IMG/VR virus record: IMGVR_UViG_3300021400_000136 | Coordinates: 16,152-80,151 of that record | Length of the DNA stretch: 64,000 nt | Source of the DNA: a virus | Taxonomy: Duplodnaviria; Caudoviricetes | Direction: 5' to 3' (one strand) | Shown here: piece by piece, positions 1 to 17,177 of the stretch | How positions within the stretch are numbered: position 1 is the stretch's first letter | Layout of the letters: each line of letters begins with the position of its first letter | Program-made: the position numbers and the translations under genes | The notes under the pieces: generated by a model | The model's input: only the letters and a program-made list of their open reading frames with translations | What the model was told of the DNA's origin: nothing | Databases searched by the model: none

Positions 1-2
1 GT

Positions 3-3000
3 GAAGAGAGCTATGATAAGCGCCAGTTTAAAGCGCCTCCGATACCTATCTTCAGCACTGAAGCAACCAGAGAGGAGCAGAGACTGGCTGACCTGCAGAT
101 CATGCGACAGGCCATCCAAGGGGCTCGTGATGCGGCTCAGTACAAGAACGATGAGATTATGTTTGGCCGTAAGTATATCGGGCAGGATAATACTATCGCA
201 GCTTGGGATGCAGCGGAAGCAGCACTCGAAGCTAATGCCCCGACAGCAGATTCTACTCCGGAAGAGAAGGCTGCATACAACCATGAGCGCCGGTATATTC
301 AGGAGAGAATTGATGCCTGCGAGTATAAGGCTTTCGTTGACGAGTATGCCGATGTAAGTGATTCAGATATTCGTCAAGAGCTTTTTGAAATGCGGTTTGG
401 TAATGGCGAAACTACGACAGAAGATAGCGCGGATACTAATGACACAGCGCATAATTTGTTGACGGCAAAATCTGCTTACGATGCAGCAGAAGAGGCCTTT
501 AATGAAATCGCCGAAACTGCCCGTCCTACATCGGCTGAGTACCTTGATGCATACCAGGCAATGAAAGAAGCGGAAGCTGCATACGCCGAAGCACTTCAGC
601 TCGCGAAGGATGAGTCAAAACTCGATGTCGGTGAGATCTTCGACTTTTCAGCCTTTGCAGATATCTTATCTGGGGCGCCAGAAGAAAATGAACTCAGCGC
701 CGAAGAGCAGAAAAGAGCTGAGTATCTCCAAAGATTGCTTCAGGATCGAGAGATATCGGCTATACAAGAAGAAATTAAGAGCTACGAAAAGGACTACCCA
801 GATGGGACTGCTATGCGGCATTGGGCAGAAGATATCGAGCTCGACGTAGAAAAGAAAGAAGCAGCACTTCTGGACGCGCAGACAGAAGCAGGTAAGCTGG
901 ATGCAGAGGCTTATCAATATGCTACTGTAGACGCGCATAGTACAGAAAATCATACGCCGGAAGAGGCGGCACAGAAGGCCCAAGAAGCAAAAGACGCGCA
1001 CAATAGAGCACTGATCGCGGAGCAGGAGCTTGCTGAGGCGAAAGGAAAACTCGCTCTTGTGCAGGCGCTGAACCAGACCAGTATCCGATCCGAAGCAGAC
1101 TATGCCGAGCAGGTTGCCAAAGGTAAAGAAATGGCTGGAGATATAGCCCAGTATAAAGAGGCTATCGATACGGCGATGGATGTTGGGCTCGATAGGAAGC
1201 CTGCGGTTGATGCTCTCGTCACTCAGTTCGGCCTTACCCAAGAGGACGCCGAGAAGTACGTGGATATGTACTTCACACTGGACGAAAAGGAGAGGGCAGT
1301 ACTTTTCCCAAATGTAGATGGAGTTGAGGAAGAGGAACAAGGCTGGCTCGGAAAATGGTGGGACAAAGTTACAAGGTCTCCGTACCTTGGTGAAAAAGAA
1401 GTAGGCAAATTTACTGACGAAGAACTGAATGACTTTTACTACCATCTTGCTAAGGAAGGTGCATCAGCTGCAGCTCAATATGCGATGGGTGTAAATAATG
1501 CCTATCGTAACGAGTACAACGATCTGGCGAAAGAGCGTTTCATGCAGTTGCAGAACTACAGGGCAGGTCATAATGGCAAGTTCCAGACTGCTGTAGAAGC
1601 GGCGATGATGCCTGTAGGTAACTTTGCGCTGAATCTCACAGCCCTTCCGGAAGCTATCAGTAATTTTATCCAGGCAGAAAAACTTGGAATGTCTGTAGCT
1701 CCTACCGATCCGACAAACAGCCAGTTGGCTGAATGGGCGCAGGAAAGTTCCAGTAGACAAGTTACGGCTATGCTGCCGAACTTCAAACCGGCAGAGTTCC
1801 TTTATAATACTTATAACAGTATCGTTAACAGTGCTCTGTCACTGGCAACATTCTCAGCTCTTGGTAGCGCACTTGGCTTAACAGATGATATCGTTATCGG
1901 TGGTAAAGGTGCTTTACAGGCATTCGTATCAGCAGCTACAGATCTTGAATTCTTCGGTTCAGCAGCAGCCAGTAGGTACAGAGAGTTGCTTGAGCAGGGA
2001 GTCGATCCGCAGAAAGCAGGATGGGCGTCAGTGTACTCCGGTCTTGCCGAGGCTATGTTCGAGCACTTCTCCATTGAGAACTTGTACCACGCAAAAGGTG
2101 TTGCTGATTGGCATAATGCACTGGATTGGGCGTGGCACACAGCGTGTTCTGCCGGTGTCGAAGGCTCTGAAGAATTGTTCACCAACTGGGCTAACCGACT
2201 TGGTGATGCCTTATACTTAAAAGAAGATAATCCTTTCAACGATAGTGTTGATGCCTATATAGCGCAGGGTTTTGAAGAAGATCAGGCTCTGCGTTTTGCT
2301 ATGCACGATCTGCTGAAAGAGGATGCTCTGTCCTTCCTTGGTGGTGCTATCTCCGGTGGTGTTAATGCCGGTAGTTCCAGCATGATGGAGTGGCAGATAG
2401 ACAAAAATAAACTTGCAGATTTCCGCGCATCCCAAGGTAAGAACTTCAACATTGATCTTCCAAACGGAAAGAAAGCCTCACAGGAACTGGGTACTTATCT
2501 GTGGAATCATGAGTTCATCAGACCCGGTGACGAACATCTCTTCAACGAGGGACAGCGCAATACTGTTGAAGAAATAAAAGATCTGGCGTGGAAAGCTAGT
2601 GAGGGTAAAGCTTCTGACGAAGAGATTGGCCGTTTGCAGTATCTCACGGCACAATTCGACAGTAAAGTACTTGATGATTTTGCTCTCGCTAACAAAGATT
2701 GGTATGGCCGTGTAGAACCGATGCGTCTGGTACAGGTATCCCAGGAAGCACTTAATAAGCTCCTTGGTCCTGAGAACGCGCAGAAATATCTTGAGGCAGT
2801 AAGAGCTAATCCGCATGCAAAAGTGGAGAACGACTTCTCCTTAGGACTTCAGCAGGCCGTTCCAAATATGGGCAGTAATGAAGCATCGGAAGTTGCTGGA
2901 TTCCTCGAAAGAATATTCACAGGCTCTGACAGAACAACACCTGAAGATATAGCAAAGGTATTAGACTCCGAATTGCTCAGTTCTCCAGAGGCTCAGATGT

Positions 3001-6000
3001 ATCTTTGGAATTATCTGAAGGATAAGGTACCGACAGATACTCCCGCTATTGAAGTGGCTGCCCCGGCAGAACCGAGTGGGCTGACTCCTTCTGCTGAATG
3101 GGCTGGCCAGAATGTAAAGAGAGAACCTTCTCCGATTAAACCTGCCAGCCAGATGGAAACTGACTCTGGAACAGAGGCCGCAGATAGAGAGCCTACTCCT
3201 ATTCCCTCTGCGGAACAGGCAGCGGAGAATGAGAAGAGTAGAGAAGAAGCTGAAGCCAAAGCACGGGAAGAAATACAGAATCCGTTTATTCCAATCATGC
3301 AGTCGATTGGCATGGATCCGAATATTACATCGGAGAATGTAGGCGAAGCCTTGAAGAACCTGCTCACAACAACCTGGGAGAGAGCAAAGGAAGCGGCATA
3401 TCAGAATCAGATACTGAAGAACGGCTTATCTGATACTAATCGTAAGTTGAACGATATGCAGCATGAAGCAGCTGAACAGCAGACGAGAGACAGGCTTAAC
3501 CGCGCCCCGAAAGGTATAAAGACCGATGCGTTGGCCCAGTACAGAGATGACTCCGACTCCATTACTTTTGGTAATAATACCACTACCCGTAAGGAGTTCG
3601 TTGAAGCCTATATGAAGGGCTATGACCCGTTCAACGATAAGGAGATAAAGGGGCCGAAAGACGAGAAGGCAGCAAACCGTGCCTTTGACCGTATCCTATT
3701 GAACAGCACCACAAAGGATGGACTTCCTCTTGAAGGTGTTAAAGCCTCCATGAAGAACTACGATCTTTCTTTGCGGAAGGCTATTGTTTCTGATACCAAA
3801 AAAGGAACTGGAGAGCCTAAAGACCTGGAACGCAATGGCGAACCAAAAGCGCAAGAGCCAGCATCCGGTAAGCTTAATGTTCAGACTCCAACAGATAATA
3901 GTGCTGATATGAAGGAAGGCACGGCCACCGGTACGGAAGTTACCAGAAATGGTGAGCCTGACCAGACAGAGCCTACTGATAGTAAGCTTAATGTTCAGAA
4001 TCCAACAGATGATAGTGCTGACATGAAGGACGGCACAGGTACTGGTACAGAAGTTACCAGAAAGGGTGAGCCCGAGCAGACAGAACCTACTGGCGGCAAG
4101 CTTAATGTCCAGACTCCGGCAGATACTAGCAGTGATACCACAACGGGCCAGACTTCTGTCGATGGCAGTGAGTTGTCCAGAACTGAAAAGCCTGCTGAAG
4201 AAACTCCGGTAGAAGATCAGACCACTGAAGAGGTAGCTCCAGATAAAGCGCAGCAGTTCCTTGACTATCTCCAAGTCATGATGCAGCAGACTGGCGAGAT
4301 GACCGATGAGGAATTCAATGCCCTGTTTGGTGGTGCTACTGACACAATACTCGACGCATTGGTTGGAAGAGAACCTGCTAATGATTTCGAGCGTAGAGTT
4401 ATTGATGCTGCTACGCGGGAGATGGACAGGCGCACATCCGAAGACCAGACTATGGCTCAACAGGACGAAGCTCCGGCATCAGCAGAAACTTCGGATTTCA
4501 AAACAGATGATAACCTCTTCGCAACTAATGGAAAAGAGGATAAGAGCTGGCGCAGCTGGGATGACACAATAAATAACCCCGACAGCAACGATGACGAGAT
4601 TATAACCAGAGCAGAGTTTGTTGAACGCGCTATGAATGGCGTTGGCAAGATTAAGCCGATGACTTTCGCCGAGGCAAATGACTTGTTCGATGACTTGGCT
4701 TATATCGACGAACATGATAGCGATACCAACACGGACTACGGTAAAAAAGGTAGCAACCCAATGTACTCTGCAGGTGGCGCATCCACTGGAGCATCTGTAG
4801 CTACTGGTAGTGAACTCAATATGAAGCCGGTTACGTACTCTGCTTCGGATGTTCCCGGCCTTGTCGAGCTTGGCAGGACGAGCTATTCCCCCTCTAACCG
4901 TACTATTAGTTCCTCTGACCGTAGCTGGGGTGATGCAATCAGCAATGAGTACGGCAAGACCATTACTCGTGCAGAGTTCGTTGCAGCTGCTATGTCTGGA
5001 CAGAATCTGTACTCCGGTACCAGGATGCCTACAATTTCCGGTGTTGCAGCTAACGATCTGTTCGATGATATTGTCGATAATAAGATTGCTTATGGCGGAT
5101 ATGCCGACAGAACCAATAACGGTTACAGTATAACAGACGCTACAGTTACAGCGGATATGCTGAACGCTCCTGGTTTTGTCGGAGCTATGGCTAACACACT
5201 GGCTATCCTCGAAGCGGAAATGAGGTCGGCATCTGATACGAGCAATCAAAAACTCGCTCCGTTCATGAAGCGAGTAGATTTAGCACGTAAGCAACTTGAG
5301 GGCCTGCTTGGACGGAGTGTATCCGACGCGGCAACCGAAGTTACTGACGTACGAAATCAGATCAACACAAGACTTGCGGAGATTAATAACAGGCTTGAAG
5401 TACTGATGAGCCGGTCGGATCAGAACAAGATCGGCTATCTGGTAGACCTTAAAGAAATGTCCCAGCTCAGAGCAGAGCGTCAGAAGCTAATGACTCAGAC
5501 GTTCAGACTTGGGCAGGCAGAAGCAAAGTACACGAAAGCTCTTGACCGTTTGAACTCGGCAAGAAACAGAATGTACTCTAATGATTATTATTCTTATATT
5601 GGAGGAAAATTATATGGCGGACCAGCGGGTACTCGTGGACTCACCGGCAGGAACAACGATGTGGCTCAGTCCAGAAGCGGCGGATCGGTTACAGGATCTG
5701 CCGGAGGATCAGCTCAGTCGGTACAAGGAAATGCAGGAACAGTCTCAGAGCAGACTTTTAAAACTGTTGAAGAAATACTATCCGCAGGAGGGCTGACACT
5801 CCGAGGCAAAGTACTATTCGATTCTGCCGGGATGTCCCCGCAGGAGATAGCAAATGCCAAGATCCCGTTGTCCCTTCGTAACAGCATACTCCACGCTATG
5901 CGTAATGGTGTTGGCCGTGTTGTACTTACTGACGGTGATCTGCTGAATGGTAAATCCTATATTAATGAAAAGGGTAAAGAAGTTGAGCAGACAGTCGGTG

Positions 6001-9000
6001 GATTCTATGACACTCTCATGGACGGTGGTACGGAAAGATCTGTTATTGTTCTGCACAAAGACAGCTTCACCGAAAAGAACATCCAACACGAATACATGCA
6101 CCATATGCTCCGAAAGATGTCTGAGCGTCAGAAGCGCGGATTTCTTACCAGCGCTATCCGGACAATGTTTGGATCACGCCAGGATCTCTTCGAAGAACTG
6201 TTTGACTCCTACAAGATCGACTATGCAATTGCTCATGGCAGAGTGATCGATGAGAACGGCAGAGTGGATGAAGATCTCGCATATATTATATATGAAGAGA
6301 TGGTCGCCGACTTCTATGCAGGACTCAATCGATTCAAGACCCCCGAGATGGCAGAAGCGATGGGGCCGCTCGTCAGGGAGATGCGTGTAAGCCTGTACAA
6401 TTACTGTGAGAGACTTGGACTTGAGGACTACGCCAGATCAAAATGGATTAACAGAGAGTATACTCCTAAAGAAGGAACTCTGGACATCCGGAGAACCGGT
6501 AGAGCCACTGCGCCGTATGAGCAGCAGTTCAAAGAAAGAACTGAATCAGACAACGAACTGGCAAAGGGCGAACACCGATTCAATCCAGAGCGAAATGCTT
6601 ATGAGGCGCGATTTAGTTTGGCCAATACTATGGGTGGAATCTACGACACATATGGTGTGGACATTAATACTGCCGAGGATAGCAGACTTGACGAACTGGC
6701 GAGGCAAATCGACGAGGAGTACGAGGCAGCGCAAAAAGAGCAGGCTGACATTCGAAGCACATGGACGGATAAGGACTACGCAGATCTCACTCCCGATGAA
6801 TATTGGGCCCGATATCATGAGTGGAATGAGCAGTCTGGCATTGACGCCGTAAAACGTCGCGTCGATACACTTGGGTCGTACAGTCGTGCAATCAGCAAAG
6901 AGAAAGCTTGGAGAGCGATAGACCCAGAGGCCCTTATTCAAAAGGCAAAAGATATCTACGGAACCACTGATGACTTCCGGAAATCTGGGTACATCCTGCC
7001 GGATGGAACGATGTTGGATATGTCCCAGGGTGCCAACAAGCGGACTCTGTTCCACCATGAGACCGCTCAAGAAGTTCTGTTCGCCTTGAAGTATCCGGCT
7101 TCAGACGCAATTGAAAAATTCGTAGGTCGTGGCGGGGCCATCAGAATCGATGTAGACTCCGATGGTATTGATATCCCGCAAAGTGGCATGACCCCGGCTC
7201 AGTACGAAACCCTGCGCGACTTTCTTTCTGACTTCATAGCTACTGAAGACTACGATAGAGCAGCATTCTATGTATCTACTTTTGGTAAGAACCTGGGAAC
7301 GTCGGAGAGATTTAATCCTTCCAATACCACACAGATCTTAAACGCAATTCGCCAGTACTACGATACAGGTTCCTTCCCGAAACAGTCAACCACACAGCAG
7401 TTCTACGGTAGATATAGCCTGGCCAACACAGAAGCTGTATCTCTTGACGAACTTCAGACAGCTCGTGATGAGATGCTTGATCTGCGTCAGCAGCTCAGAG
7501 ATCGTAAGGCTGATGTCGATGAGTGGAGCCGTAGAATTATGGCTGGTGAAGCTGAGATCGACGACTACAATAAGTGGCTGTCCGATAGCGGTTACAACAG
7601 ACTCTACATGCAGGAACGTGAGGCAAGCAAACGGTATAACGACCTCAACCGCGCTTATGACGAGCAGCAGGAGAGCGCGAATGCCGAAGCCGAGCAGAAC
7701 GCAATAGAACAGTCCGGCTTATCCGAAGCAGATTACTTTGGCAAAGAAGCCGTAAAGGTATTTGGTTATACACCGTACTTCTATGACGCTGGGTACATTA
7801 CTCCGAACGGACGGATGCTGAACTTCTCCGGTGAGAAAGGTAAGCACTATGGCTCTCGAGGCCAGGATCACCGGAGCATAGGCCAGATCTTTGCGGTAAC
7901 TTCCGGCACAGAAGCCATGAACAGGTTTATCAGCTATGGTAATATCCGCATTATGGCAGAGGCTCCAGGCCTGGATATCAGCGCGAATATCGAACCGACA
8001 GCAGAGCAGTACTCTAGGATCCGTGACTTCGCAAGGAGCGCACGGGATGAGGACTACTTCAGTATCGATATCACGGGCGAAGATGGTAGGGTCATTGATA
8101 CAATCGAGTACGAAAGCGTCAACCCAGCGAAGATAGTAAACGATCTGAAGAACTACTACCGTACTGGTGAAGTACCGCAGCAGTCTGTTACTGCGCAGTT
8201 CCATGCTAGCTTTAGCCTTGTTGGCGTTTCAGATGATGGTATGGAGGTATACGAAACCTCTCAAGCCGTAAAAGATATGACCAGGGAAGAACGTATGGAC
8301 GCTTTCGAAGCACGAATGGCTAACGAGTTCAGAGGCCGTACCGCTAGATTCGAAAGAAACGGTCATATCTACTATGCTAAGTTCGATAGTACTGGCGTTT
8401 CTAAAAATATCTATGGGGACGACAAGTCTGATCAGTCCGGATGGAGAGCCAAGATAAGAGCCGGAGCAGATGGCGATATCTTTGATCTGATAGAGAATTC
8501 TACTTATAATGGCAGCAGCGCAGAAAAGAGTGGAAAAAAAGGTAAGGCCCATAACAAGACCCAACGCTGGGACTACTTCATAAAGAAGGTCCAGATCGAT
8601 GGTATTGTGTATGACCTCACTGCAAATGTAAGACGTAAAAACGATGACTTCGTTTATAATATCCAGCTTAACCGGGATATTAATACAAAACCGGCGACGT
8701 CTTACAGCCCACTCCCGAAGGCGGGTTTTAACCAAGACATCGCCGGTACAGATAATGTATCACAAAACGGCTCAACTGTCAAGTACAGTAAGCAGGAACA
8801 TCCGAATGCTAGGTACAGCCTGTGCGCATTTGAAGACGGCACAAAGTTCGTAAACGTCGAAACAGATCAAGAACAGTTTGATGGACTAACGGATAAAGAA
8901 AAGCGCGACTTAGCAGAAAAAATAATAAAAGAGCGGTTCTCCGGGAGAATAATCGGTGAGACGAACAAAGCCTTCGTCAATAGCCAGACTGCAAGAGAGT

Positions 9001-12000
9001 ATGCTTATCCGTCAAAACGCCTTACAGATAGTGGGGTACTTGACGCTAAGATGAGGGCGTCAACCGAACTAGATAATCTACTGGAGGCCGGTAGTAATTT
9101 TAGGACGGCACCTGATGGGGCTGACGGGCATACACACCCAGACGCCGTAGGAGGATTCACTTATTTTGACACGCTGTTTAAAGTAGGTGAGGAATTCTAT
9201 AAAGGTCTTGTCAATATTAAGAATAATGCCAAGGGCGCTCTTCTAGTAGATATTACAAAAATAGAAAACGTCACTAAGGACACATACAACTCATACGGAA
9301 AAAATCCGAAGTTCGTATTCCTTAATGACGTTTCTAATGATATTAAATCACAGAATAACCCGAATGTCAAGAACCAAAATGAATCTGAGCCGAGCTACTC
9401 CATCGCTGTCTCCGATCCCGATACGTTGGACTTCCTTAACGACCAACTCGAGAACGGGGATGTAGTTTACACCTACAAATCCTTCCTTGAGTACGAAGAC
9501 GAGAATGGAGATCCGTATCTAATTGCTCCTATGGCTGGTGTGCAGAAAGACGAGACGGGCAAGAAGAGCCAGTCGCATGCCCTTCGTCCAGGTGTGTGGG
9601 AAGAGTCTGTTGGTAATCCCAACTCTAAGAGCCTCGGTAAGAAAGTCAATGACAAGACCGGTGAAGTATCCTGGACTTATGGACTTGAGAAGAGTGACGT
9701 AGATGGTTCTGTTGTACCGGCTGCATATAACCCGTATCAGCACTCCAGTGATGTAGTTCTCAATGACCAGTTCTCCATTGCGTACAAACGTCCAAACCTG
9801 GTAACGTATATGTGCGCTATTCCTAAGAGTGAACTGACCAGTGGCTATCACTTTGGTGTAACCGATCCTGAGAAGGCAACTCGTTCTGACGGCGATATTG
9901 TTACCGCAAAAGACGCGGTTGGTATGCACGACTGGAAGAGCGGTTCCCTAGCAAGCCAGTTAGAAAACACACAAAGACATGTGTATCTTTCTCGGTGGCT
10001 CATGCCGGTACGTAAGCTGTCCAACATAGAAGTTGCTCAGCAGTACAAGGAGATCCTCGATAGGGAAGCACCCGGTCTTGGTGTGCCATTCAATGTTGTA
10101 CCTTCCGGTTTGCTCTCAGCTCTTCAGGAAGTTGGCGTTCCAATTGACCTTACTGGTACAGGACTATCTGAAGCCAACTACAGAAAATATCTTTCTGAAG
10201 TAAACGCTGCTCGTGAAGAGGCAGGTCTTGAACCGTTCCCGTACTCTTATCAGACTAAAGCCGAAAGAGATGCCGCAAAGAAAGAACGGAAGAACGCTTC
10301 CAAACGGTTCTCGATCTCTGGAGACAACCTTGATAATCTTGACGATCTTCTGATGGATTATGATCTTTCGGATCTCGGAAGAATAGTTTCTGACACATTT
10401 GGTTCTACCTTTGAAACAGAAGAGGACGAAATGCCTCCTGAACTTCCGTACGAACAACAGCGTCCTAGAAGATCTGTAGAGAACCCGACTCACAATCCAA
10501 CTGCTTATCTGAAACCAGAAACACTAAATGCATGGCTGTCCGGAAGGGGCTTTGCCGATACAGGTAACCCGAACTATGCGCAGGCTTACATCGGATGGAT
10601 GAATCCAGAGGACTTCCTATACTTGACAACCTCTACCTATGATTACGAGGACAATAGAGTAAGGGCGGAAGGATACTACGGTGATCTGGAAGATATCTCT
10701 AGCAGGGCGCAACGTGGAAGAGAAGCCGATACAATTCATCTTTCAATTGATTCTGAAACAGGAAGAGTATACGGGCATGAAGGGCGCCATCGTATGGCCT
10801 ACCTGCAAAGCCTTGGTGTGGAGAGAGTCCCTGTTCTTTTCTTTGACAGCGGAAATAAGTATGATAAGGAAATAATGGAGGACTATACTCTATCTGGAGA
10901 GCAGAGGCCAGGGAAGAAAGTTACTCTCGATAATCCTCTGATCCCTCTCAGCAATGGGTACAGAGGGCTTGTCGAGAACGAGTTCGTTAAAGGCGAAGAG
11001 CAAGACAACGATCTTCAGACAGCGCGATTTTCCATCACGGACGATTCGAATGCCGATGGCTATACTCTGTCAGATATTGATTCCACAGGAAGAGAATTGA
11101 CGGACGAGCAGTATTACTACTTCCGCAATTCGAAAGTAGTGGACGAAGATGGGCATTTAATTCCGCTTTACCATGGAACGAATGCATTCGGCTTTACCGA
11201 GATAGACTTCGATAAAGCAGACGATGGAATATCCTTCTTCCTCACGGATAGTCCAGAAGTGGCCGGGTCCTATACAAGGAACAATACTGTCCGATCCTTA
11301 TTTGATAAGCAAAGACAGCGGCGGGCGATTGATGTATCAAAGCTTTCGGATGAAGATCTAGCTTCGCTGTTTTCCCAAGTTAGTATACCGTACTTCGAAT
11401 CAGCTACCGTATCGAAATTTGAGGATGTACTCAGAACCTTCACAGGCCCATTGAACGCCGCAAAAATGCGATACGCCAGTTTCTTTGAAGAAGAACTGTT
11501 ACCGTCCAGAGAAGATCTTGGCCTTACTGAAACGGACTTAGCCTTCTACGACGCGCTGAAAGGCAACAGCACTAGTGTCGAAAGCATCATAGATTTGCTT
11601 GATAGAGCAGATAAATTCTATTATAGCCTTCGCAAAAAGATATGGGATACCGACGAAAGCTATATTTGGGACGAAATGCGATCGCTGCAACCGCAATTAC
11701 AAACCGCAGCTTCTCAGGCACAAAGATTTCTGGCTGACCATAATTCTGCTGGAGTATCTTTGGAGGATAATGTTTTTATTACGGATCCAGGTAGCAAGAA
11801 TTTCTACACGAGAGAGCAAATCGAGAGACTTACTGGCAGAAGACAAGAGGAAGAAGAGCTCGGAAGGAACTCTGCCGGTATTTACAAGGGGTACGCAAAT
11901 CTAACAAATCCATTTATTGTTGATGCAAATGGAGCTGAATGGAATCAGATTCCGGTCGATCAAGAAGTAGTAGACTATCTAAAAGCACTTAATTCGCCAG

Positions 12001-15000
12001 AGTTCTACGTCTCAGAATGGGCAGAAGACGGAGAGGTTAAAACAAGGGGAATAGCTAAGTACGCAAAGGATCACGGATATGACGGCGCTATAATTAGAAA
12101 CTGTGTTGACATCGGAGAGTATAAGCGTTCCTACGACTACGAAGCGTATTCTACTCCGGCAACTCTGGTGCTATGCTTTGAACAGAATCAGTTCAAAGAC
12201 TATAGAAATACAGAACCTACTGATGGCATTGATTTAAGATTTTCTATTGCCGATACCTATGACGCCTTTGGAGATGAAATCGATGTCCAAGATGGAACAG
12301 TTCTGAATGCAACCAAGTCCACACTTTCTGATCAGCTTTTCTATTCTGAAGACGGTAATACCGCCTACTACCAGCTCGACTCTGGTGAGACGGTGGTTAT
12401 GGAGAACGTAGGGGAAGACTCTCCCGAAGCACGATACATTAATTTCTTGGAGGCAACGAACAATGCCAACAGTACTGACACAACCACAGCAAAACCTTAT
12501 ACGATACCTCCTGCAACTCGGTATGAATCTGATGGATATAATATCGGTGAATCGAATGATGGCCTACGACGAGGAGCGGAAGAAGTTCCTTCGGCGAATC
12601 AAGAAGGAACACTTCGACGTGCAGGAAGTAATGGAGAACGCAATGAACAGAGTCAACCGCAGAGTGAAGAGGCGGAAGGTGTAAGGTTCTCTGCCACTAT
12701 CCCGACAGCTGACGACCCGAACCATCCGACAGCCTTCGTCAACCAGAACGGCGATGTGGTTACCACTGCTGAAGCTTACCCGTACGGATCTATGGAGCGC
12801 ATGATCATCGAGGCATGGAACACTGGTGACTTCAGATCTATTGAGGACCAGATTAACGAAATGCTCGATATCGGCCACGCCAGAGATGAAGTCTTCGATA
12901 TGATGGAAGAGATCGCTGCACAGCCTCTGGGGCTTACTCCTCAGGAGCGCGACGCAGTCTACAGACAGATCGAAGAGATGCGTGTACGGTATGGAACGAT
13001 GCCGTCGGCGAATGTTACGAAGCGGGATGTACATTTCCCAGTAGCTACAGACGACGACACCAAACTGATGAAGGGCGCACAGACCCATGCACAGGAGGCC
13101 GAGACCGAGTGGCTGTCTGAAGAGATCATGGCAGAAGCACTCCGTAACGAGATTCTCTCCTATGTCCCTGCATCTAATAAGTCCTCCATCGAAAAAGCGG
13201 AAGACTATATCAAAGCGAAGAAAGGTAATTACGAAGAGATCGCAAGAGATGTCCACGCTTGGCTGGCATCCGGAGAGCGTGTCAAACCGTGGCAGGTAGC
13301 AGTCGGCGAACTCCTTCTTAAAGAGGTAGAAACCGAAGGCAGAGCAGACCTCGCTATGTCTCTCGTAATAGACCTTACTCTTATGGCCCATGAAACCGGA
13401 CAGGCTCTGCAAGCTTTCGCTATTCTCCGGAAGGCGACTCCGCGTGGACAGCTCTACTATCTGCAAGGTGTTGTTAACCAACTGAATAAAAAGTATGAGA
13501 AACAGATCCGAGAAGGGAAGATGGGCAAGATCGAACTTCCGCAGGATGCTGCGCAGAGAATGCTCGCATGCGAAACACGGCAGGAACTGAATGACGTAGT
13601 CGAGGAAATAAAGGACGAGATCGCGAAAAAGATTCCTGTATCATGGGCTGATCGCTGGAACGCATGGAGATACCTGGCTATGTTGGGTAACCCCAGAACA
13701 CACGTTCGTAACATGCTTGGTAACGGCCTGTTCCGTCCCGCCGTATTTATCAAAGACGTTATCTCCAGAAGACTGGAGGATATAGCAAGTAGGCACGGCA
13801 AGCTGGAAGGTAGGTCTCGTATAGCAGGAGCGAATCTGAAATCCGATACGGAATGGATGCGCTATGCCAACGAAGACTATGAGGAAATGTACAAGATCCT
13901 TGTAGGCGAGGCAACCGGTAATAAGTATGCTGATGCCAACGACATCCTCTCCAGACGAGATCTCTGGGGTAAAGACAAGTGGCTCGGTGGTAAGTTCCTT
14001 GCATGGGCAGACCGTAAGAACAGCGACTTACTTACTAAGGAAGATGCTACATTCCTAAAGAAGTACTACACCAGAGCGTTTGCAGAATTCCTGCAGGCGA
14101 GGGGTGTAACGGAAGAAGATCTCCGTGATAAGAAGTTTGGCGCTACCAAGGCAAATAAGAAGCTCATCAACGAAGCAAGAGCATGGGCAACAATCGAGGC
14201 TCAGAGGAATACCTACCGTGATGCCAATGCAGTAGCTTCCTGGCTTAACTCCATGAAGCGTCAGGGTACTGTTCCTTACACAATCCTCGAAGGTGTTGTT
14301 CCGTTCACCAAGACCCCGATGAACATCCTTGCCCGTGGTATTGAGTACTCTCCGATTGGACTGATTCAGAGCGTACGGCAACTGGCTAAAGATCTTCGTA
14401 GTCCGAGCGAGATGACCACCAGCCAAGCGCTGGATAGACTCGCTGCCGGTATGACCGGTACGATGATCGTTGGCCTCGGCCTGTTCCTCACTGCTATGGG
14501 CTGGCTCCGTGGAAGTGGTGGAGATGATGATAAGAAGAAAGAGTTCGAAGAGCTCATGGGTCATCAGGCATGGTCTCTTGAACTGTTTGGCTACAGCTAC
14601 ACCATCGACTGGATGGCACCGGCTGCACTGCCACTCTTCATTGGCTCCGCTATCTACGATATGCTGGCGACAGAAAGGGAAGAGGAGCTCGGCTTCGAAG
14701 ATATCGTCAAGGCACTGCTTGGTATAGCGGATCCTCTCAGCCAGTTGTCCATGCTGGATGGTATCTCTACTATGCTCTCCAACCTGGCGGATGCACAGGG
14801 GACGGAACAATTCTCCGTATTACTCTGGACTGCACTGACAAGCTATGTTGGACAGGGTATGCCTACACTCCTTGGGCAGGTAGCTAGAACATTCGATCCG
14901 GATAGACGGTCAACGTATATCCAGCCGGGTAGCAAAAACCCGATGCTGCAGCGGTTTATCCAGTCCTCCATACAGGCTAAGATCCCGGGTTGGGAGAACC

Positions 15001-17177
15001 AGAAGATGCGGTATGTGGATAACTGGGGTAGAACAGACTCAGCCAATACACCTTGGGAGAAATTCCTAAAGGGCGTTGAGAACTTCCTTTCACCGGGTTA
15101 TCTGAACAAGATCGAGACCTCCGCTGTTGAGGACGAGCTGATGAGGCTGTACGAAGCAACCGGAGATAAGAACATTCTGCCAGACAGAATGGGTAAGTAC
15201 TTCCAGGTTGACGGAGAACGGAAGAACCTCACAGCAGATGAGTACGAGCAATTGCTCACGGAAAAAGGACAGATGCACTATAACCTTCTGAACGAGGTTA
15301 TGTCCTCTGAGTATTACGCTTCTCTGACTGATGAACAAAAGGCAAAGCTGCTCCTCAACGCTGGAGAATTCTCAAAGAACTACGGCAAGCAGATGGTAGA
15401 TCCAGAGTTCGATATGGACAGCCACTGGATGGATGTAGCAAGGGCAATAGGCCCCGCCGATTATCTGATGATCCAGGATGATCTTTCCCACAACAGGACT
15501 CATGACCAGCTGTTCACCTACCTTGTATCCAATCCGAATCTCAGCTACGATCAGATCGCATATCTCATCGCTGATGAATATGCCGCTCCGGACAAGATTC
15601 CCAGTGTCGGTAACAACGGCTACAACTATGAGATCACTGAGGAAGATGAGGCAGCGATGCAGGAGATCTTCAAAGATCTGGTACATACGCGCCTTGCTGA
15701 ATTAGAGACTGATCCCAGGTATGTTGCAGGCGATGAGTACAAGAAGGGCGATATGATGGACAACCTCTATAATGAAATTAAAGAGGATGTCAAAACAATA
15801 TACGCCGAACAGCTCGATGCATCCGACCGTCCGATGGTACTTGGAAAGGCATCTTCTGTAGGAACCGAGTCCTTTAATATGGTACTCGATCTTACACGTA
15901 ACGAGATCGAAGGAGAGTACAGGGATGACATCGCAGCACAGGCTGGATGGTTAAGCCAGAAGTACCGGGCTGACTCCCAGATCAGTAACCCCGATAGAGA
16001 CGGCTGGGATATCAAGCTCAGTGCTGATGACAAGGACGAGCTGTATGATGAATTCCAGAAAGCTTGGGAGCCTGCATACAGAAAGATGCTTACTGAAGAT
16101 CCTGAGTTCCGCAACGCCACAAGCCGAGCATATCAGGATAAGATGATAGCATCCTTGTTCAATGAAGTTTCCCAGCAGGTAGAAGATGCATACGCTTCTA
16201 AACTGTACAAGTCCGGTAAGGCTGATGAAGTCATCGGCGATCCGAAGGGGACGGCAAAGAAAGACTGGCTGAAGAACTATGAGATTGCCAACGAAGCCTA
16301 CACCAATCCTAAGGATCAGGCAGCGTGGTTAGCAAAGAGATTTACCGGTGCTACCACTTTGGACAACCCCGACAGACCTGGGTACAATATCAAGACGAGC
16401 GATGCACAGCAGGCTCAACTTGCTCAGATCGAACAGGATAGATTCACTGCCGAATATGAAGCAATGAAGAAAGATCCGAAGTTCAAGAGCATGACACCGG
16501 AAGAGCAGGCTATCCAGACATACCAGCTGGCGCAGAACATCATGGATGTCGAAGAGGCCAAATACTCCAGATATCTGCTGGATAGAGGCGCAAAGATCGA
16601 ACAGGCAATCGATACTCAGTGCACGAATTCTGAATACTTCAATATGGTATTCTCAGAAGATCTCACTGATAGCGAACGGTACGACCTGATCGAACAACGC
16701 TATGACAGATATGTTGGTAAGAGTATTCTCAATAACTCCCTCGACTACCTCCAGCAGCACCAACGTGTCGGGTACTACATGGACTACGTACGTGAGAACA
16801 TGTATAAAGTCGCTGGACTTACCGGAGCAGAGGAAGCAGAAGCTTATATCAAGAAGATCCATGAACCGGCGATGAAGGCATCCGGAAATGCGATCAAGGC
16901 AGACTATAATTTAGCCAAGACCACGGCGGAGGCAGATGACGCGGCAAAGATAGCAGCCGGATATAACTACGGTATGCATCTCGGAACGGATCTGAATACT
17001 GTGGCGCCTAACACTACACCGGCGGAGGCTTCGGTAAGACCGAGGAACGGATATGTTATACCTCCTGCGGCTACAGAGAATACGCCAGAAACAAAACAAA
17101 GAACCAACTCTGGACTCGTGATCCCGACAGCTAACGAAGCTGTACAGGACGCATTCAAGTACAGAAGGTTCTGGTAA
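3..17177 (+). CDS. Giant polyvalent virion-associated protein (at least 5,724 aa, 5'-truncated by the window edge); contains an HExxH zincin, duplicated unknown domains, LPD3-like domains, ParB-like and ART-like domains, and a conserved internal-virion-type C-terminal region
   Basis: ORF track 102..17177; the same frame is open from position 3 (EESYDKRQFK...), so the true start lies upstream. Motifs: HEYMH (6087-6101), GHEGRHR (10773-10793), YHGT (11169-11180), and C-terminal WRYLAMLGNPRTHVRN / PFTKTPMNI / YTIDWMAP blocks typical of large phage polyvalent proteins. Confidence 0.9.
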   Translation, partial: EESYDKRQFKAPPIPIFSTEATREEQRLADLQIMRQAIQGARDAAQYKNDEIMFGRKYIGQDNTIAAWDAAEAALEANAPTADSTPEEKAAYNHERRYIQERIDACEYKAFVDEYADVSDSDIRQELFEMRFGNGETTTEDSADTNDTAHNLLTAKSAYDAAEEAFNEIAETARPTSAEYLDAYQAMKEAEAAYAEALQLAKDESKLDVGEIFDFSAFADILSGAPEENELSAEEQKRAEYLQRLLQDREISAIQEEIKSYEKDYPDGTAMRHWAEDIELDVEKKEAALLDAQTEAGKLDAEAYQYATVDAHSTENHTPEEAAQKAQEAKDAHNRALIAEQELAEAKGKLALVQALNQTSIRSEADYAEQVAKGKEMAGDIAQYKEAIDTAMDVGLDRKPAVDALVTQFGLTQEDAEKYVDMYFTLDEKERAVLFPNVDGVEEEEQGWLGKWWDKVTRSPYLGEKEVGKFTDEELNDFYYHLAKEGASAAAQYAMGVNNAYRNEYNDLAKERFMQLQNYRAGHNGKFQTAVEAAMMPVGNFALNLTALPEAISNFIQAEKLGMSVAPTDPTNSQLAEWAQESSSRQVTAMLPNFKPAEFLYNTYNSIVNSALSLATFSALGSALGLTDDIVIGGKGALQAFVSAATDLEFFGSAAASRYRELLEQGVDPQKAGWASVYSGLAEAMFEHFSIENLYHAKGVADWHNALDWAWHTACSAGVEGSEELFTNWANRLGDALYLKEDNPFNDSVDAYIAQGFEEDQALRFAMHDLLKEDALSFLGGAISGGVNAGSSSMMEWQIDKNKLADFRASQGKNFNIDLPNGKKASQELGTYLWNHEFIRPGDEHLFNEGQRNTVEEIKDLAWKASEGKASDEEIGRLQYLTAQFDSKVLDDFALANKDWYGRVEPMRLVQVSQEALNKLLGPENAQKYLEAVRANPHAKVENDFSLGLQQAVPNMGSNEASEVAGFLERIFTGSDRTTPEDIAKVLDSELLSSPEAQMYLWNYLKDKVPTDTPAIEVAAPAEPSGLTPSAEWAGQNVKREPSPIKPASQMETDSGTEAADREPTPIPSAEQAAENEKSREEAEAKAREEIQNPFIPIMQSIGMDPNITSENVGEALKNLLTTTWERAKEAAYQNQILKNGLSDTNRKLNDMQHEAAEQQTRDRLNRAPKGIKTDALAQYRDDSDSITFGNNTTTRKEFVEAYMKGYDPFNDKEIKGPKDEKAANRAFDRILLNSTTKDGLPLEGVKASMKNYDLSLRKAIVSDTKKGTGEPKDLERNGEPKAQEPASGKLNVQTPTDNSADMKEGTATGTEVTRNGEPDQTEPTDSKLNVQNPTDDSADMKDGTGTGTEVTRKGEPEQTEPTGGKLNVQTPADTSSDTTTGQTSVDGSELSRTEKPAEETPVEDQTTEEVAPDKAQQFLDYLQVMMQQTGEMTDEEFNALFGGATDTILDALVGREPANDFERRVIDAATREMDRRTSEDQTMAQQDEAPASAETSDFKTDDNLFATNGKEDKSWRSWDDTINNPDSNDDEIITRAEFVERAMNGVGKIKPMTFAEANDLFDDLAYIDEHDSDTNTDYGKKGSNPMYSAGGASTGASVATGSELNMKPVTYSASDVPGLVELGRTSYSPSNRTISSSDRSWGDAISNEYGKTITRAEFVAAAMSGQNLYSGTRMPTISGVAANDLFDDIVDNKIAYGGYADRTNNGYSITDATVTADMLNAPGFVGAMANTLAILEAEMRSASDTSNQKLAPFMKRVDLARKQLEGLLGRSVSDAATEVTDVRNQINTRLAEINNRLEVLMSRSDQNKIGYLVDLKEMSQLRAERQKLMTQTFRLGQAEAKYTKALDRLNSARNRMYSNDYYSYIGGKLYGGPAGTRGLTGRNNDVAQSRSGGSVTGSAGGSAQSVQGNAGTVSEQTFKTVEEILSAGGLTLRGKVLFDSAGMSPQEIANAKIPLSLRNSILHAMRNGVGRVVLTDGDLLNGKSYINEKGKEVEQTVGGFYDTLMDGGTERSVIVLHKDSFTEKNIQHEYMHHMLRKMSERQKRGFLTSAIRTMFGSRQDLFEELFDSYKIDYAIAHGRVIDENGRVDEDLAYIIYEEMVADFYAGLNRFKTPEMAEAMGPLVREMRVSLYNYCERLGLEDYARSKWINREYTPKEGTLDIRRTGRATAPYEQQFKERTESDNELAKGEHRFNPERNAYEARFSLANTMGGIYDTYGVDINTAEDSRLDELARQIDEEYEAAQKEQADIRSTWTDKDYADLTPDEYWARYHEWNEQSGIDAVKRRVDTLGSYSRAISKEKAWRAIDPEALIQKAKDIYGTTDDFRKSGYILPDGTMLDMSQGANKRTLFHHETAQEVLFALKYPASDAIEKFVGRGGAIRIDVDSDGIDIPQSGMTPAQYETLRDFLSDFIATEDYDRAAFYVSTFGKNLGTSERFNPSNTTQILNAIRQYYDTGSFPKQSTTQQFYGRYSLANTEAVSLDELQTARDEMLDLRQQLRDRKADVDEWSRRIMAGEAEIDDYNKWLSDSGYNRLYMQEREASKRYNDLNRAYDEQQESANAEAEQNAIEQSGLSEADYFGKEAVKVFGYTPYFYDAGYITPNGRMLNFSGEKGKHYGSRGQDHRSIGQIFAVTSGTEAMNRFISYGNIRIMAEAPGLDISANIEPTAEQYSRIRDFARSARDEDYFSIDITGEDGRVIDTIEYESVNPAKIVNDLKNYYRTGEVPQQSVTAQFHASFSLVGVSDDGMEVYETSQAVKDMTREERMDAFEARMANEFRGRTARFERNGHIYYAKFDSTGVSKNIYGDDKSDQSGWRAKIRAGADGDIFDLIENSTYNGSSAEKSGKKGKAHNKTQRWDYFIKKVQIDGIVYDLTANVRRKNDDFVYNIQLNRDINTKPATSYSPLPKAGFNQDIAGTDNVSQNGSTVKYSKQEHPNARYSLCAFEDGTKFVNVETDQEQFDGLTDKEKRDLAEKIIKERFSGRIIGETNKAFVNSQTAREYAYPSKRLTDSGVLDAKMRASTELDNLLEAGSNFRTAPDGADGHTHPDAVGGFTYFDTLFKVGEEFYKGLVNIKNNAKGALLVDITKIENVTKDTYNSYGKNPKFVFLNDVSNDIKSQNNPNVKNQNESEPSYSIAVSDPDTLDFLNDQLENGDVVYTYKSFLEYEDENGDPYLIAPMAGVQKDETGKKSQSHALRPGVWEESVGNPNSKSLGKKVNDKTGEVSWTYGLEKSDVDGSVVPAAYNPYQHSSDVVLNDQFSIAYKRPNLVTYMCAIPKSELTSGYHFGVTDPEKATRSDGDIVTAKDAVGMHDWKSGSLASQLENTQRHVYLSRWLMPVRKLSNIEVAQQYKEILDREAPGLGVPFNVVPSGLLSALQEVGVPIDLTGTGLSEANYRKYLSEVNAAREEAGLEPFPYSYQTKAERDAAKKERKNASKRFSISGDNLDNLDDLLMDYDLSDLGRIVSDTFGSTFETEEDEMPPELPYEQQRPRRSVENPTHNPTAYLKPETLNAWLSGRGFADTGNPNYAQAYIGWMNPEDFLYLTTSTYDYEDNRVRAEGYYGDLEDISSRAQRGREADTIHLSIDSETGRVYGHEGRHRMAYLQSLGVERVPVLFFDSGNKYDKEIMEDYTLSGEQRPGKKVTLDNPLIPLSNGYRGLVENEFVKGEEQDNDLQTARFSITDDSNADGYTLSDIDSTGRELTDEQYYYFRNSKVVDEDGHLIPLYHGTNAFGFTEIDFDKADDGISFFLTDSPEVAGSYTRNNTVRSLFDKQRQRRAIDVSKLSDEDLASLFSQVSIPYFESATVSKFEDVLRTFTGPLNAAKMRYASFFEEELLPSREDLGLTETDLAFYDALKGNSTSVESIIDLLDRADKFYYSLRKKIWDTDESYIWDEMRSLQPQLQTAASQAQRFLADHNSAGVSLEDNVFITDPGSKNFYTREQIERLTGRRQEEEELGRNSAGIYKGYANLTNPFIVDANGAEWNQIPVDQEVVDYLKALNSPEFYVSEWAEDGEVKTRGIAKYAKDHGYDGAIIRNCVDIGEYKRSYDYEAYSTPATLVLCFEQNQFKDYRNTEPTDGIDLRFSIADTYDAFGDEIDVQDGTVLNATKSTLSDQLFYSEDGNTAYYQLDSGETVVMENVGEDSPEARYINFLEATNNANSTDTTTAKPYTIPPATRYESDGYNIGESNDGLRRGAEEVPSANQEGTLRRAGSNGERNEQSQPQSEEAEGVRFSATIPTADDPNHPTAFVNQNGDVVTTAEAYPYGSMERMIIEAWNTGDFRSIEDQINEMLDIGHARDEVFDMMEEIAAQPLGLTPQERDAVYRQIEEMRVRYGTMPSANVTKRDVHFPVATDDDTKLMKGAQTHAQEAETEWLSEEIMAEALRNEILSYVPASNKSSIEKAEDYIKAKKGNYEEIARDVHAWLASGERVKPWQVAVGELLLKEVETEGRADLAMSLVIDLTLMAHETGQALQAFAILRKATPRGQLYYLQGVVNQLNKKYEKQIREGKMGKIELPQDAAQRMLACETRQELNDVVEEIKDEIAKKIPVSWADRWNAWRYLAMLGNPRTHVRNMLGNGLFRPAVFIKDVISRRLEDIASRHGKLEGRSRIAGANLKSDTEWMRYANEDYEEMYKILVGEATGNKYADANDILSRRDLWGKDKWLGGKFLAWADRKNSDLLTKEDATFLKKYYTRAFAEFLQARGVTEEDLRDKKFGATKANKKLINEARAWATIEAQRNTYRDANAVASWLNSMKRQGTVPYTILEGVVPFTKTPMNILARGIEYSPIGLIQSVRQLAKDLRSPSEMTTSQALDRLAAGMTGTMIVGLGLFLTAMGWLRGSGGDDDKKKEFEELMGHQAWSLELFGYSYTIDWMAPAALPLFIGSAIYDMLATEREEELGFEDIVKALLGIADPLSQLSMLDGISTMLSNLADAQGTEQFSVLLWTALTSYVGQGMPTLLGQVARTFDPDRRSTYIQPGSKNPMLQRFIQSSIQAKIPGWENQKMRYVDNWGRTDSANTPWEKFLKGVENFLSPGYLNKIETSAVEDELMRLYEATGDKNILPDRMGKYFQVDGERKNLTADEYEQLLTEKGQMHYNLLNEVMSSEYYASLTDEQKAKLLLNAGEFSKNYGKQMVDPEFDMDSHWMDVARAIGPADYLMIQDDLSHNRTHDQLFTYLVSNPNLSYDQIAYLIADEYAAPDKIPSVGNNGYNYEITEEDEAAMQEIFKDLVHTRLAELETDPRYVAGDEYKKGDMMDNLYNEIKEDVKTIYAEQLDASDRPMVLGKASSVGTESFNMVLDLTRNEIEGEYRDDIAAQAGWLSQKYRADSQISNPDRDGWDIKLSADDKDELYDEFQKAWEPAYRKMLTEDPEFRNATSRAYQDKMIASLFNEVSQQVEDAYASKLYKSGKADEVIGDPKGTAKKDWLKNYEIANEAYTNPKDQAAWLAKRFTGATTLDNPDRPGYNIKTSDAQQAQLAQIEQDRFTAEYEAMKKDPKFKSMTPEEQAIQTYQLAQNIMDVEEAKYSRYLLDRGAKIEQAIDTQCTNSEYFNMVFSEDLTDSERYDLIEQRYDRYVGKSILNNSLDYLQQHQRVGYYMDYVRENMYKVAGLTGAEEAEAYIKKIHEPAMKASGNAIKADYNLAKTTAEADDAAKIAAGYNYGMHLGTDLNTVAPNTTPAEASVRPRNGYVIPPAATENTPETKQRTNSGLVIPTANEAVQDAFKYRRFW
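3828..4128 (+). repeat. In-frame 114-bp (38-aa) tandem repeat, about 2.6 copies, inside the giant gene
   Basis: AAGCTTAATG recurs at 3870, 3984 and 4098; protein unit approximately EVTRxGEPxQTEPTxxKLNVQxPTDxSADMKxGTxTGT. Confidence 0.9.

Follow-up and report, generated by a model that had tools for sequence, protein, structure and literature searches.

Sequence comparison indicates that a giant phage polyvalent protein carries a short peptide signal, R/K-F/Y-S-L/I/V/A, which is maintained at the protein level and lies at the end of each hydrophilic linker and the start of each effector cassette, in the variable middle of the protein. The signal has a flavour particular to each protein, and this looks like the pattern expected of a virus-specific recognition code. 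The explanation favoured here, to which we give a probability of roughly 45%, is that the junction motif is a polyprotein processing site and that cutting at every junction would divide the giant protein into separate effectors.

The giant gene and its phage

The giant gene occupies positions 1-17177 on the plus strand of the window (the whole 64,000-nucleotide stretch of DNA that was analysed), where its reading frame is truncated by the 5' end; all features described below lie on the same strand. The whole gene, which starts 1,209 nt upstream of the window, is 18,387 nt long and encodes 6,128 amino acids, and the number of a residue in the full protein is its number in the window plus 404. 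The source is an uncultivated phage represented by an 80,151-bp virus record with 107-bp terminal repeats, and a blastn search of its DNA against 50,697 GenBank phages gave no matches. Genes for the large terminase, portal, major head protein, tail fibres and endolysin are found upstream on the same strand, and the giant gene stands at the end of this structural block.

The original prediction that this is a phage polyvalent protein was borne out, both by a match of its seventh cassette to ART-PolyVal at 50.3 bits, above the Pfam gathering cut-off of 31.2, and by the terminase, portal and head genes of the phage. Several distinct effector or enzymatic domains are carried on the one polypeptide (ART-PolyVal, LPD3-like, ParB-like, HExxH and at least six unrelated cassette families), and its origin is a virus record with structural genes. 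The giant protein is probably carried in the virion and passed into the host cell, as suggested by the position of its gene, by a relative in which the giant gene adjoins a P22-type portal gene and by proteomics of phi24B gp47; phi24B virions package a 2,811-aa polyvalent protein that has been proposed to be an ejection protein (bioRxiv 10.64898/2026.04.10.717836).

Occurrence of the junction motif

Nine tripeptides were recovered in the frame of the giant ORF exactly where they had been predicted, and each is followed by L, I or A, giving RFSL (6609-6620), RYSL (7410-7421), SFSL (8208-8219), RYSL (8811-8822), SYSI (9393-9404), RFSI (10305-10316), RFSI (11025-11036), RFSI (12237-12248), which opens the conserved C-terminal module, and RFSA (12684-12695). 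The predicted spacings of 801, 798, 603, 582, 912, 720, 1212 and 447 nt are likewise correct. The pattern [RS][FY]S[LIA] would be expected 0.8 times in the 6,128-aa protein from its composition and occurs nine times (Poisson P = 2e-7), with all nine copies inside one central region of 2,150 aa in which 0.4 would be expected, but since the pattern was defined post hoc these values are generous. The original prediction had passed over four looser occurrences of [RS][FY]S (window nt 4881, 6876, 8700 and 8934), which are without L, I or A at the fourth position and lie inside domains, away from their borders.

The enrichment is seen again in related proteins. RFS and RYS are 2.8-fold enriched in 82 non-redundant related giant proteins, and in a set of 144 independent representatives RFS is enriched 2.5-fold and RYS 4.4-fold, the reversed tripeptides SFR and SYR being present at 0.5 times expectation. 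The motif is kept at aligned junctions of relatives. Chance, or selective listing of a common tripeptide, could draw on the post hoc definition and the four omitted matches, but it is refuted by the count of nine against 0.8, by the replication in the 82 and 144 relatives and by conservation at aligned junctions, and its probability is negligible. Two of the nine copies have S at the first position, and relatives have Q or M there, which counts against a processing site. Across junctions hydrophobicity is low from -32 to -1 and returns to background level from the motif onwards; as the dip is only shallow, the linkers must be short on average. The other ORFs of the phage (16,612 aa) contain only four scattered matches to the motif, none at a propeptide-like position, and its use as a general prohead-protease site was rejected, the other ORFs showing no sign of it. 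A search of the full-text literature found no paper describing this junction motif.

Selection on the peptide and its protein-specific flavour

Among the nine copies arginine is encoded by CGA, AGA, AGG and CGG and serine by AGT, AGC, TCC, TCG and TCT, and because the codons differ between copies selection on the motif must act at the level of the protein. At [RK][FY]S sites the junctions of one protein agree at positions 4, 5 and 6 more than permuted data do (z = 10.1, 11.9 and 4.8 respectively), whilst 14 of 15 flanking offsets tested gave z below 2.5 and position 7 gave 3.1. Identity within a protein at positions 4-6 is about twice the permuted value, even before unrelated domains. The effect persists after the removal of pairs with similar flanks and was replicated in the 144-representative set. 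At position 5 identity is 0.210 for junctions of the same protein with unrelated downstream domains and 0.206 for junctions of different proteins with homologous domains, against a baseline of 0.079. The flavours include R-F-S-I/L in this phage and, in two related phages designated G003 and G001, K/R-F/Y-S-A and Q-Y-S-L/I/V respectively. To our knowledge the protein-specific flavour is the first sequence-level sign that the junctions of polyvalent proteins are read.

Cassettes and their exchange

The original prediction of one domain-sized unit per interval holds in so far as blocks of homology start and end at motifs, but the sixth and seventh cassettes (C6 and C7) each contain long extra segments. 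Adjacent units had also been held to be pairwise paralogs, and profile-profile comparison (hhalign) supports this for C1/C2, at 100% probability, and for C3/C4, which align along their whole length at 96% (E 4e-9), whereas C5/C6, C7/C8 and every other pair scored at most 2.4% and are unrelated. The motifs thus delimit at least six mutually unrelated domain families.

C1 (6609-7409) and C2 (7410-8207) are copies of an unknown domain, 29% identical in blastp (E 2e-18), and C2 is 87-91% identical at the nucleotide level to DNA of phages G002 and G003. C3 (8208-8810) is LPD3-like, with a Pfam LPD3 (PF18798) score of 22.9 bits that is under the cut-off of 27, and the precomputed annotation of the collection assigns PF18798 to the giant protein as a whole; C4 (8811-9392) is its distant paralog. 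C5 (9393-10304) is without a clear solved relative and has different neighbours in nine other phage contigs. In its AlphaFold2 (AF2) model the S-I-A of the motif forms the first beta strand, in a 10-residue block of mean pLDDT 83 that follows a disordered linker, and all 11 homologs compared keep the motif serine. When the C5 model was used to search with Foldseek and VIA there was no match at E <=0.001, and VIA Z scores did not exceed 4.4, the many ART-fold chains at Z 3-4 being under the noise level. The modelled strand and the invariant serine suggest that the motif may be partly structural and not freely accessible, which speaks against cleavage.

In C6 (10305-11024) a ParB-like domain, with HEGRH at 10776-10790, comes after a long hydrophilic stretch; the cassette has no Pfam match, but its nearest Atlas clusters carry ParB_N (scores 0.91 and 0.90), and tripeptides of its GHEGRHRM are enriched 3-8-fold across giant proteins. 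C7 (11025-12236) is an ART-PolyVal ADP-ribosyltransferase (PF18760, E 5.5e-13) with LYHGT at 11166-11180, matched in two stretches separated by an insert. C8 (12237-12683) is 83-86% identical at the nucleotide level to DNA of three other phages that do not share its flanks. The conserved C-terminal module of about 1,500 aa (12684-17174) is 36-46% identical in many relatives and has one strongly hydrophobic segment (14439-14495). Pfam and PHROGs searches of the individual cassettes returned only ART-PolyVal, the weak LPD3 match and two unnamed PHROGs. Matches in a search for shorter homologs of the cassettes were almost all 2,000-3,100 aa long, a range uninformative on stand-alone forms.

That effectors are swapped at the motif, as the original prediction proposed, is supported by gain and loss breakpoints both in protein alignments and, at nucleotide level, in three related phage genomes, and homologs of the giant protein are not colinear. 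The prediction thus withstood the pattern named in advance as refuting it, in which homologs would be colinear and their breakpoints would bear no relation to RFS. The edges of BLAST homology blocks come to lie no more than 10 aa from a motif 3-4 times more often than expected. The DNA blocks shared with G001, G002 and G003 are 83-93% identical, and all six of their 3' ends in the cassette region fall at -4 to +16 nt from a motif: at the third motif the blocks of G002 and G003 stop at -4 and +16 nt, a 93%-identical G001 block begins 6 nt upstream of the fifth and ends at +10 nt from the sixth, and three blocks end at -1, +1 and +2 nt from the ninth. Since the shared blocks stop so close to the junctions, these comparisons indicate that phages exchange cassettes of unrelated fold as whole units, with the motif at their borders.

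A candidate processing peptidase

An HExxH zincin-like domain, a candidate processing peptidase, is encoded directly upstream of the first motif (5568-6539), with HEYMH at 6087-6101 and a Glu-helix, EEMVADF, at 6294-6314. The H, E and H and the downstream E and D are invariant in five relatives. The AF2 model of the domain has a zincin-like topology, in which a beta sheet is accompanied by one helix with the HExxH and another with the Glu, at a mean pLDDT of only 56; the best Foldseek match is weak, a zincin with probability 0.72 and E 0.1, and there was no Pfam match at E up to 1. The motifs and this low-confidence model make the domain a candidate peptidase. When the first motif was included in cis its RFSL tail was modelled at pLDDT ~31-36, too low to judge docking. 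Among 13 relatives with the same HExxH family 58 motifs lie downstream of the domain and five upstream, at five times the density (P = 9e-6). Such a bias is also to be expected if the N-terminal third is merely a conserved non-cassette module. Motif density is equal in giants with and without this HExxH family (0.79 and 0.70 per 1,000 aa respectively). Some HExxH, partly the ParB HEGRH motif, is present in 81 of 82 giants, and since it is nearly universal its co-occurrence with the motif cannot discriminate.

What might read the junctions

All junctions of a given protein have the same flavour, whereas other proteins have other flavours, which suggests that one common reader would recognise every junction of a protein. 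The most likely such reader would be a protease, and the best candidate the HExxH domain. For cleavage or release after injection, which the original prediction also proposed, the backing is indirect and consists of the protein-specific flavour and of the placement of the motif downstream of an HExxH domain. The parts released would be the two copies of the unknown domain, the two LPD3-like domains, C5, the ParB-like domain, the ADP-ribosyltransferase and the C-terminal module. A zincin whose S1' pocket is hydrophobic would be well served by a primed side that runs from an aromatic through a small to an aliphatic residue, with the cut placed before the F/Y and occurring either in the capsid or after ejection, both position and timing being guesses. 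In an elaboration that we consider improbable, the motif would serve as a phage-specific cleavage code that carries its own timer. In the bacterial N-end rule (ClpS/ClpAP) Phe and Tyr count as primary destabilising residues and R and K as secondary ones, and if the zincin cut between R/K and F/Y each freed effector would start with Phe or Tyr and be destroyed by the host protease. The ADP-ribosyltransferase, the nuclease-like modules and the others would, once injected, have only a short time to act and be degraded before harming phage replication, and in each phage the site flavour would stay fitted to that phage's protease.

The motif might instead be purely structural, F/Y-S-L/I forming a first beta strand or a cap that insulates neighbouring folds and is neither read nor cut. 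The C5 model, with S-I-A in a short strand (pLDDT ~83) right after a disordered linker, is consistent with this, as are the invariant serine of the C5 homologs, the return of hydrophobicity at the motif and the D-G turn pattern that follows it in C3, C4 and the ADP-ribosyltransferase, which suggests a hairpin. However, six unrelated folds would hardly need the same four residues, and the flavour at positions 4-6 tracks the host protein about as strongly as it does the downstream family, which is not what a fold-intrinsic strand predicts. Furthermore, ART domains at the N-terminus of proteins lack the motif and evidently manage without it, and one relative has two copies 12 residues apart within a single linker; we regard a purely structural role as possible but unlikely. 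A slightly more doubtful proposition is that the motif docks a reader that is not a protease, such as a packaging or capsid-targeting receptor, or a chaperone, unfoldase or ejection channel gripping the chain at regular intervals. The evidence for a common reader (protein-specific flavour, protein-level selection and linker position) serves this equally, and the phi24B protein offers a packaged polyvalent protein of proposed ejection function, but no candidate partner was identified and the motif is without pattern in the other ORFs of this phage. We know of no system that uses such a repeated handle.

The suggestion in the original prediction of a recombination junction is not supported as far as a DNA-level site is concerned. 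Motif nucleotides supplying the homology or the site for cassette exchange would explain why mosaic DNA blocks end a few nucleotides from the motif, but the nine copies have no nucleotide consensus, using different Arg and Ser codons (for Ser AGY as against TCN), the motif codons differ between the two phages at breakpoints, and 12 variable bases are too few for homologous recombination. A DNA-level signal, largely refuted by these sequences, is very improbable.

Significance and relation to known systems

Polyvalent proteins are weapons of phages and plasmids, and form a large class that has hardly been put to the test. In 2017 Iyer, Burroughs, Anand, de Souza and Aravind (PMC5512222) described such proteins from phages and conjugative elements, like the present one with many effector domains on one polypeptide (ART-PolyVal, LPD3-like, ParB-like and HExxH zincin domains) encoded in phages near structural genes, and predicted that the class is processed by a zincin-like peptidase, without naming the site. 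Their paper names no junction or cleavage motif, and the words 'linker', 'boundary', 'interdomain' and 'spacer' each occur in it 0 times. What is added here is the R-F/Y-S-L/I junction signal, its protein-specific flavour and the nucleotide-level breakpoints of cassettes. Because the junction signal is well defined, occurs widely and is under selection as protein, it makes the 2017 prediction of processing directly testable, gives a rule for dividing the giants into domains for work on structure and function and shows where new effectors plug in.

Confirmed cleavage would mean that dsDNA phages, too, can follow a true polyprotein strategy. Polyproteins of RNA viruses (e.g. the sites of potyvirus NIa and picornavirus 3C) have a short consensus at every domain border and a protease in the same chain, and the consensus is uniform within a virus but differs between viruses. 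The giant protein resembles them in its conserved short motif at each domain border, in its in-chain candidate protease and in a site consensus uniform within the virus and divergent between viruses. It differs in belonging to a dsDNA phage, in that its candidate protease is a metallopeptidase and not of the Cys or Ser type, in that cleavage is here an inference and in carrying swapped accessory effectors instead of a fixed replicase set.

Prohead proteases likewise cut internal and ejected phage proteins at short consensus sites, reported as L/I-x-E for T4 gp21 and S/A/G-x-E for phiKZ and SPN3US (PMC10052503). The present motif is different and shows no sign of use in the other virion proteins of this phage, in which no prohead protease was identified.

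A further comparison is with polymorphic toxins, in which VENN (CdiA) and DPxGL (Rhs) mark the exchange point of toxin modules, the Rhs motif being also a cleavage site, and in which there is one junction before a single C-terminal tip, together with an immunity gene. The giant protein, in contrast, has up to nine internal junctions rather than a single one before a variable tip, its C-terminal 1,500 aa are the conserved part, the motif is unrelated, and the differing codons leave no conserved junction DNA for homologous exchange. What the two have in common is a short conserved peptide at the exchange point of variable modules.

Motif at the cassette junctions

Nine copies of a short motif mark the junctions between eight cassettes (C1-C8) in the variable middle of a giant phage polyvalent protein; the motif is selected at the protein level, cassettes are exchanged at it, and the residues surrounding it take a form peculiar to each protein. 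The original prediction that nine R/S-F/Y-S tripeptides recur between window nt 6609 and 12692 was borne out, all being in frame at the positions claimed and correctly spaced, with L, I or A as the next residue in every case. This four-residue pattern occurs nine times compared to 0.8 expected from composition, with every copy lying within residues 2607-4632 of the full protein, and four looser matches lacking L/I/A, absent from the original prediction, fall inside domains. Hydrophobicity is low over a stretch of some 30 residues leading up to the motif, and from the motif on it is normal. Aligned junctions of homologs retain R/K/Q-F/Y-S/A-L/I/V, and at many of them there is a longer upstream tail, N-x-x-P-T-x-x-x-D-I-R-F/Y-S. 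Many relatives also carry N-x-N-P-T-x-D-P-D-I-R-F/Y-S at junctions, and in the relative at locus L010 (also L005:2666-15226, protein P0020) a single linker contains two copies, R-F-S-I-Q and R-Y-S-I-Q, spaced 12 residues apart. No published description of the motif was found in the searchable literature.

The window covers bases 16152-80151 of an IMG/VR virus record that comprises 80,151 bp with 107-bp direct terminal repeats. The giant ORF is truncated at the 5' end of the window, and the complete gene in the whole genome has 6,128 codons, accounts for 23% of the genome and starts at an ATG preceded by a GGAGG box (full-protein residue = window residue + 404). Upstream genes on the same strand encode the large terminase, the portal and the major head protein, and also two tail-fibre proteins and an endolysin-like protein; the ORFs scanned yielded neither a tail tube nor a sheath gene. 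A P22-type portal gene precedes the giant gene in one relative, and in that of L010 (and of L005:2666-15226) the giant gene is adjoined by an integrase gene, so that the L010 phage is temperate. At L002:12940-14922 a 660-aa ORF without a PHROG match lies immediately 5' of the giant gene. In L005 this place is taken by an ORF of 640 aa, and a conserved partner may be encoded here.

Exchange of cassettes

Relatives have in common, at 25-46% identity, the first third of the protein and its last 1,500 residues, and the middle cassettes vary among them in number, kind and order. The test put forward with the original prediction gave the outcome it anticipated, in that homologs are not colinear and breakpoints are located at RFS. 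A motif is found no more than 10 residues from the starts and ends of alignment blocks at frequencies of 25% and 37%, compared to 8% expected, and the neighbours of C5 differ in nine other phage contigs, with a motif nearly always at the border. Isolated DNA blocks 83-93% identical occur in three related phage genomes, consisting of C5 alone in G001, C1-C2 in G002, C2 in G003 and C8 in each of the three. Relative to a motif, the six 3' block ends are all positioned between -4 and +16 nt, and the 5' ends between -6 and +121 nt. C8 (window 12237-12683) has 83-86% DNA identity to G001-G003, whereas the sequence after motif 9 reaches only about 36-46% as protein, which suggests, from sequence comparison, that C8 is either a recently exchanged or a strongly conserved small module heading the C-terminal region.

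It had also been claimed that adjacent units are pairwise paralogs. This holds for C1/C2 (29% identity; hhalign 100%) and C3/C4 (hhalign 96%, E 4e-9), but all other pairs are unrelated, and the motif therefore joins at least six unrelated families.

A proposed reader of the junctions

A signal for DNA recombination is nearly excluded, as the nine copies share no DNA word: their Arg codons are CGA, AGA, AGG and CGG and their Ser codons both AGY and TCN. Both RFS and RYS are enriched 2.8-fold in a set of 108 giant homologs, of which 82 are non-redundant, and they rank alongside catalytic motifs, for example YHGT and GHEGRHRM. In 144 further representatives, gathered with the ART N-terminal segment, RYS was enriched 4.4-fold and RFS 2.5-fold, with the reversed SFR and SYR at 0.5-fold. 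Giants bearing an ART domain number roughly 1,900.

The residues around R-F/Y-S tend to be common to the junctions of one protein, being R-F-S-I/L in the giant protein, K/R-F/Y-S-A in G003, Q-Y-S-L/I/V in G001, and D-I-R-Y-S-D-R, R-Y-S-L-P or R-Y-S-V-A in other giants. At 411 [RK][FY]S sites, identity within a protein at positions 4, 5 and 6 was about twice the permuted value (z = 10.1, 11.9 and 4.8), with z = 4.2 at position -1; of 15 control offsets between -20 and +31, 14 gave z below 2.5, and position 7 gave 3.1. The effect persisted after pairs with similar flanks were dropped, and the second set reproduced it (z = 10.1, 21.6 and 10.1). Identity at position 5 was 0.210 between junctions preceding unrelated domains of the same protein, 0.206 between junctions preceding homologous domains of different proteins and 0.079 at baseline. 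The homology filter used is crude and may let through remote paralogs, such as several ART copies in one protein.

By analogy with virus polyproteins, a common reader co-evolving with its sites would be expected to produce such a protein-specific form. Cleavage at the motif is the best-supported mechanism on sequence grounds and is given a probability of roughly 45%. Zincin peptidases have been proposed to process polyvalent proteins, with no site named (Iyer et al. 2017, PMC5512222). Directly 5' of motif 1 is a zincin-like candidate peptidase (window 5568-6539). Five relatives all keep the H, E and H of its HExxH as well as an E and a D further on; the domain was modelled with a sheet, an HExxH helix and a Glu helix, at a pLDDT of only 56 and with weak fold matches. 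Across the 13 relatives that possess this HExxH family, 58 motif copies lie downstream of the domain compared to five upstream (a 5-fold higher density, P = 9e-6), although this placement could merely mirror the overall architecture. The absence of the motif from ART copies at the protein N-terminus was also counted for a protease. Counted against it, or as neutral, were the independence of motif density from this particular HExxH family, the presence of some HExxH in almost all giants, and the C5 model, in which the motif is predicted to form an ordered first strand and its Ser is invariant. A purely structural cap is nevertheless rather unlikely, a fold-intrinsic strand not predicting a protein-specific form, and a non-proteolytic docking signal is a little less likely again. 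The other ORFs gave no sign of the motif as a general prohead-protease site. Virions of phi24B have been found to contain a polyvalent protein of 2,811 aa, a proposed ejection protein (bioRxiv 10.64898/2026.04.10.717836), which supports a virion location for the giant protein only by analogy.

Cassettes and other parts of the protein

C7 is an ART-PolyVal domain (Pfam match), C3 has a weak Pfam match to LPD3, and C6 carries the ParB-like GHEGRHRM motif, its nearest Atlas clusters being ParB_N. The AF2 model of C5 (window 9393-10304) is fair (pLDDT 77) and has no clearly related solved structure; no PDB match was found at E 0.001 or better. Many chains of ART fold came up at Z 3-4 in a wide structure search (PARPs, Arr, ParT, DarT, Rhs tips), a lead only, and on the strength of this model C5 might be another NAD-using domain, of divergent type.

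The N-P-T-H tetrapeptide is the autocleavage motif of export switch proteins of the FlhB/YscU type, and one copy occurs at window 10482-10493, within the hydrophilic stretch that follows motif 6. In the N-terminal region of the giant protein, a 114-nt tandem repeat (window 3868-4129; 2.3 copies, 84% match) encodes a Pro/Thr/Glu-rich unit of 38 aa, containing K-L-N-V-Q, three times. A longer protein repeat lies at window ~4560-5000, 5' of the HExxH domain, its two copies ending in I-T-R-A-E-F-V (4602 and 4962). The giant protein has just one strongly hydrophobic segment of transmembrane type, at window 14439-14495; it belongs to the conserved C-terminal module and could have a role in inserting into the membrane during ejection.
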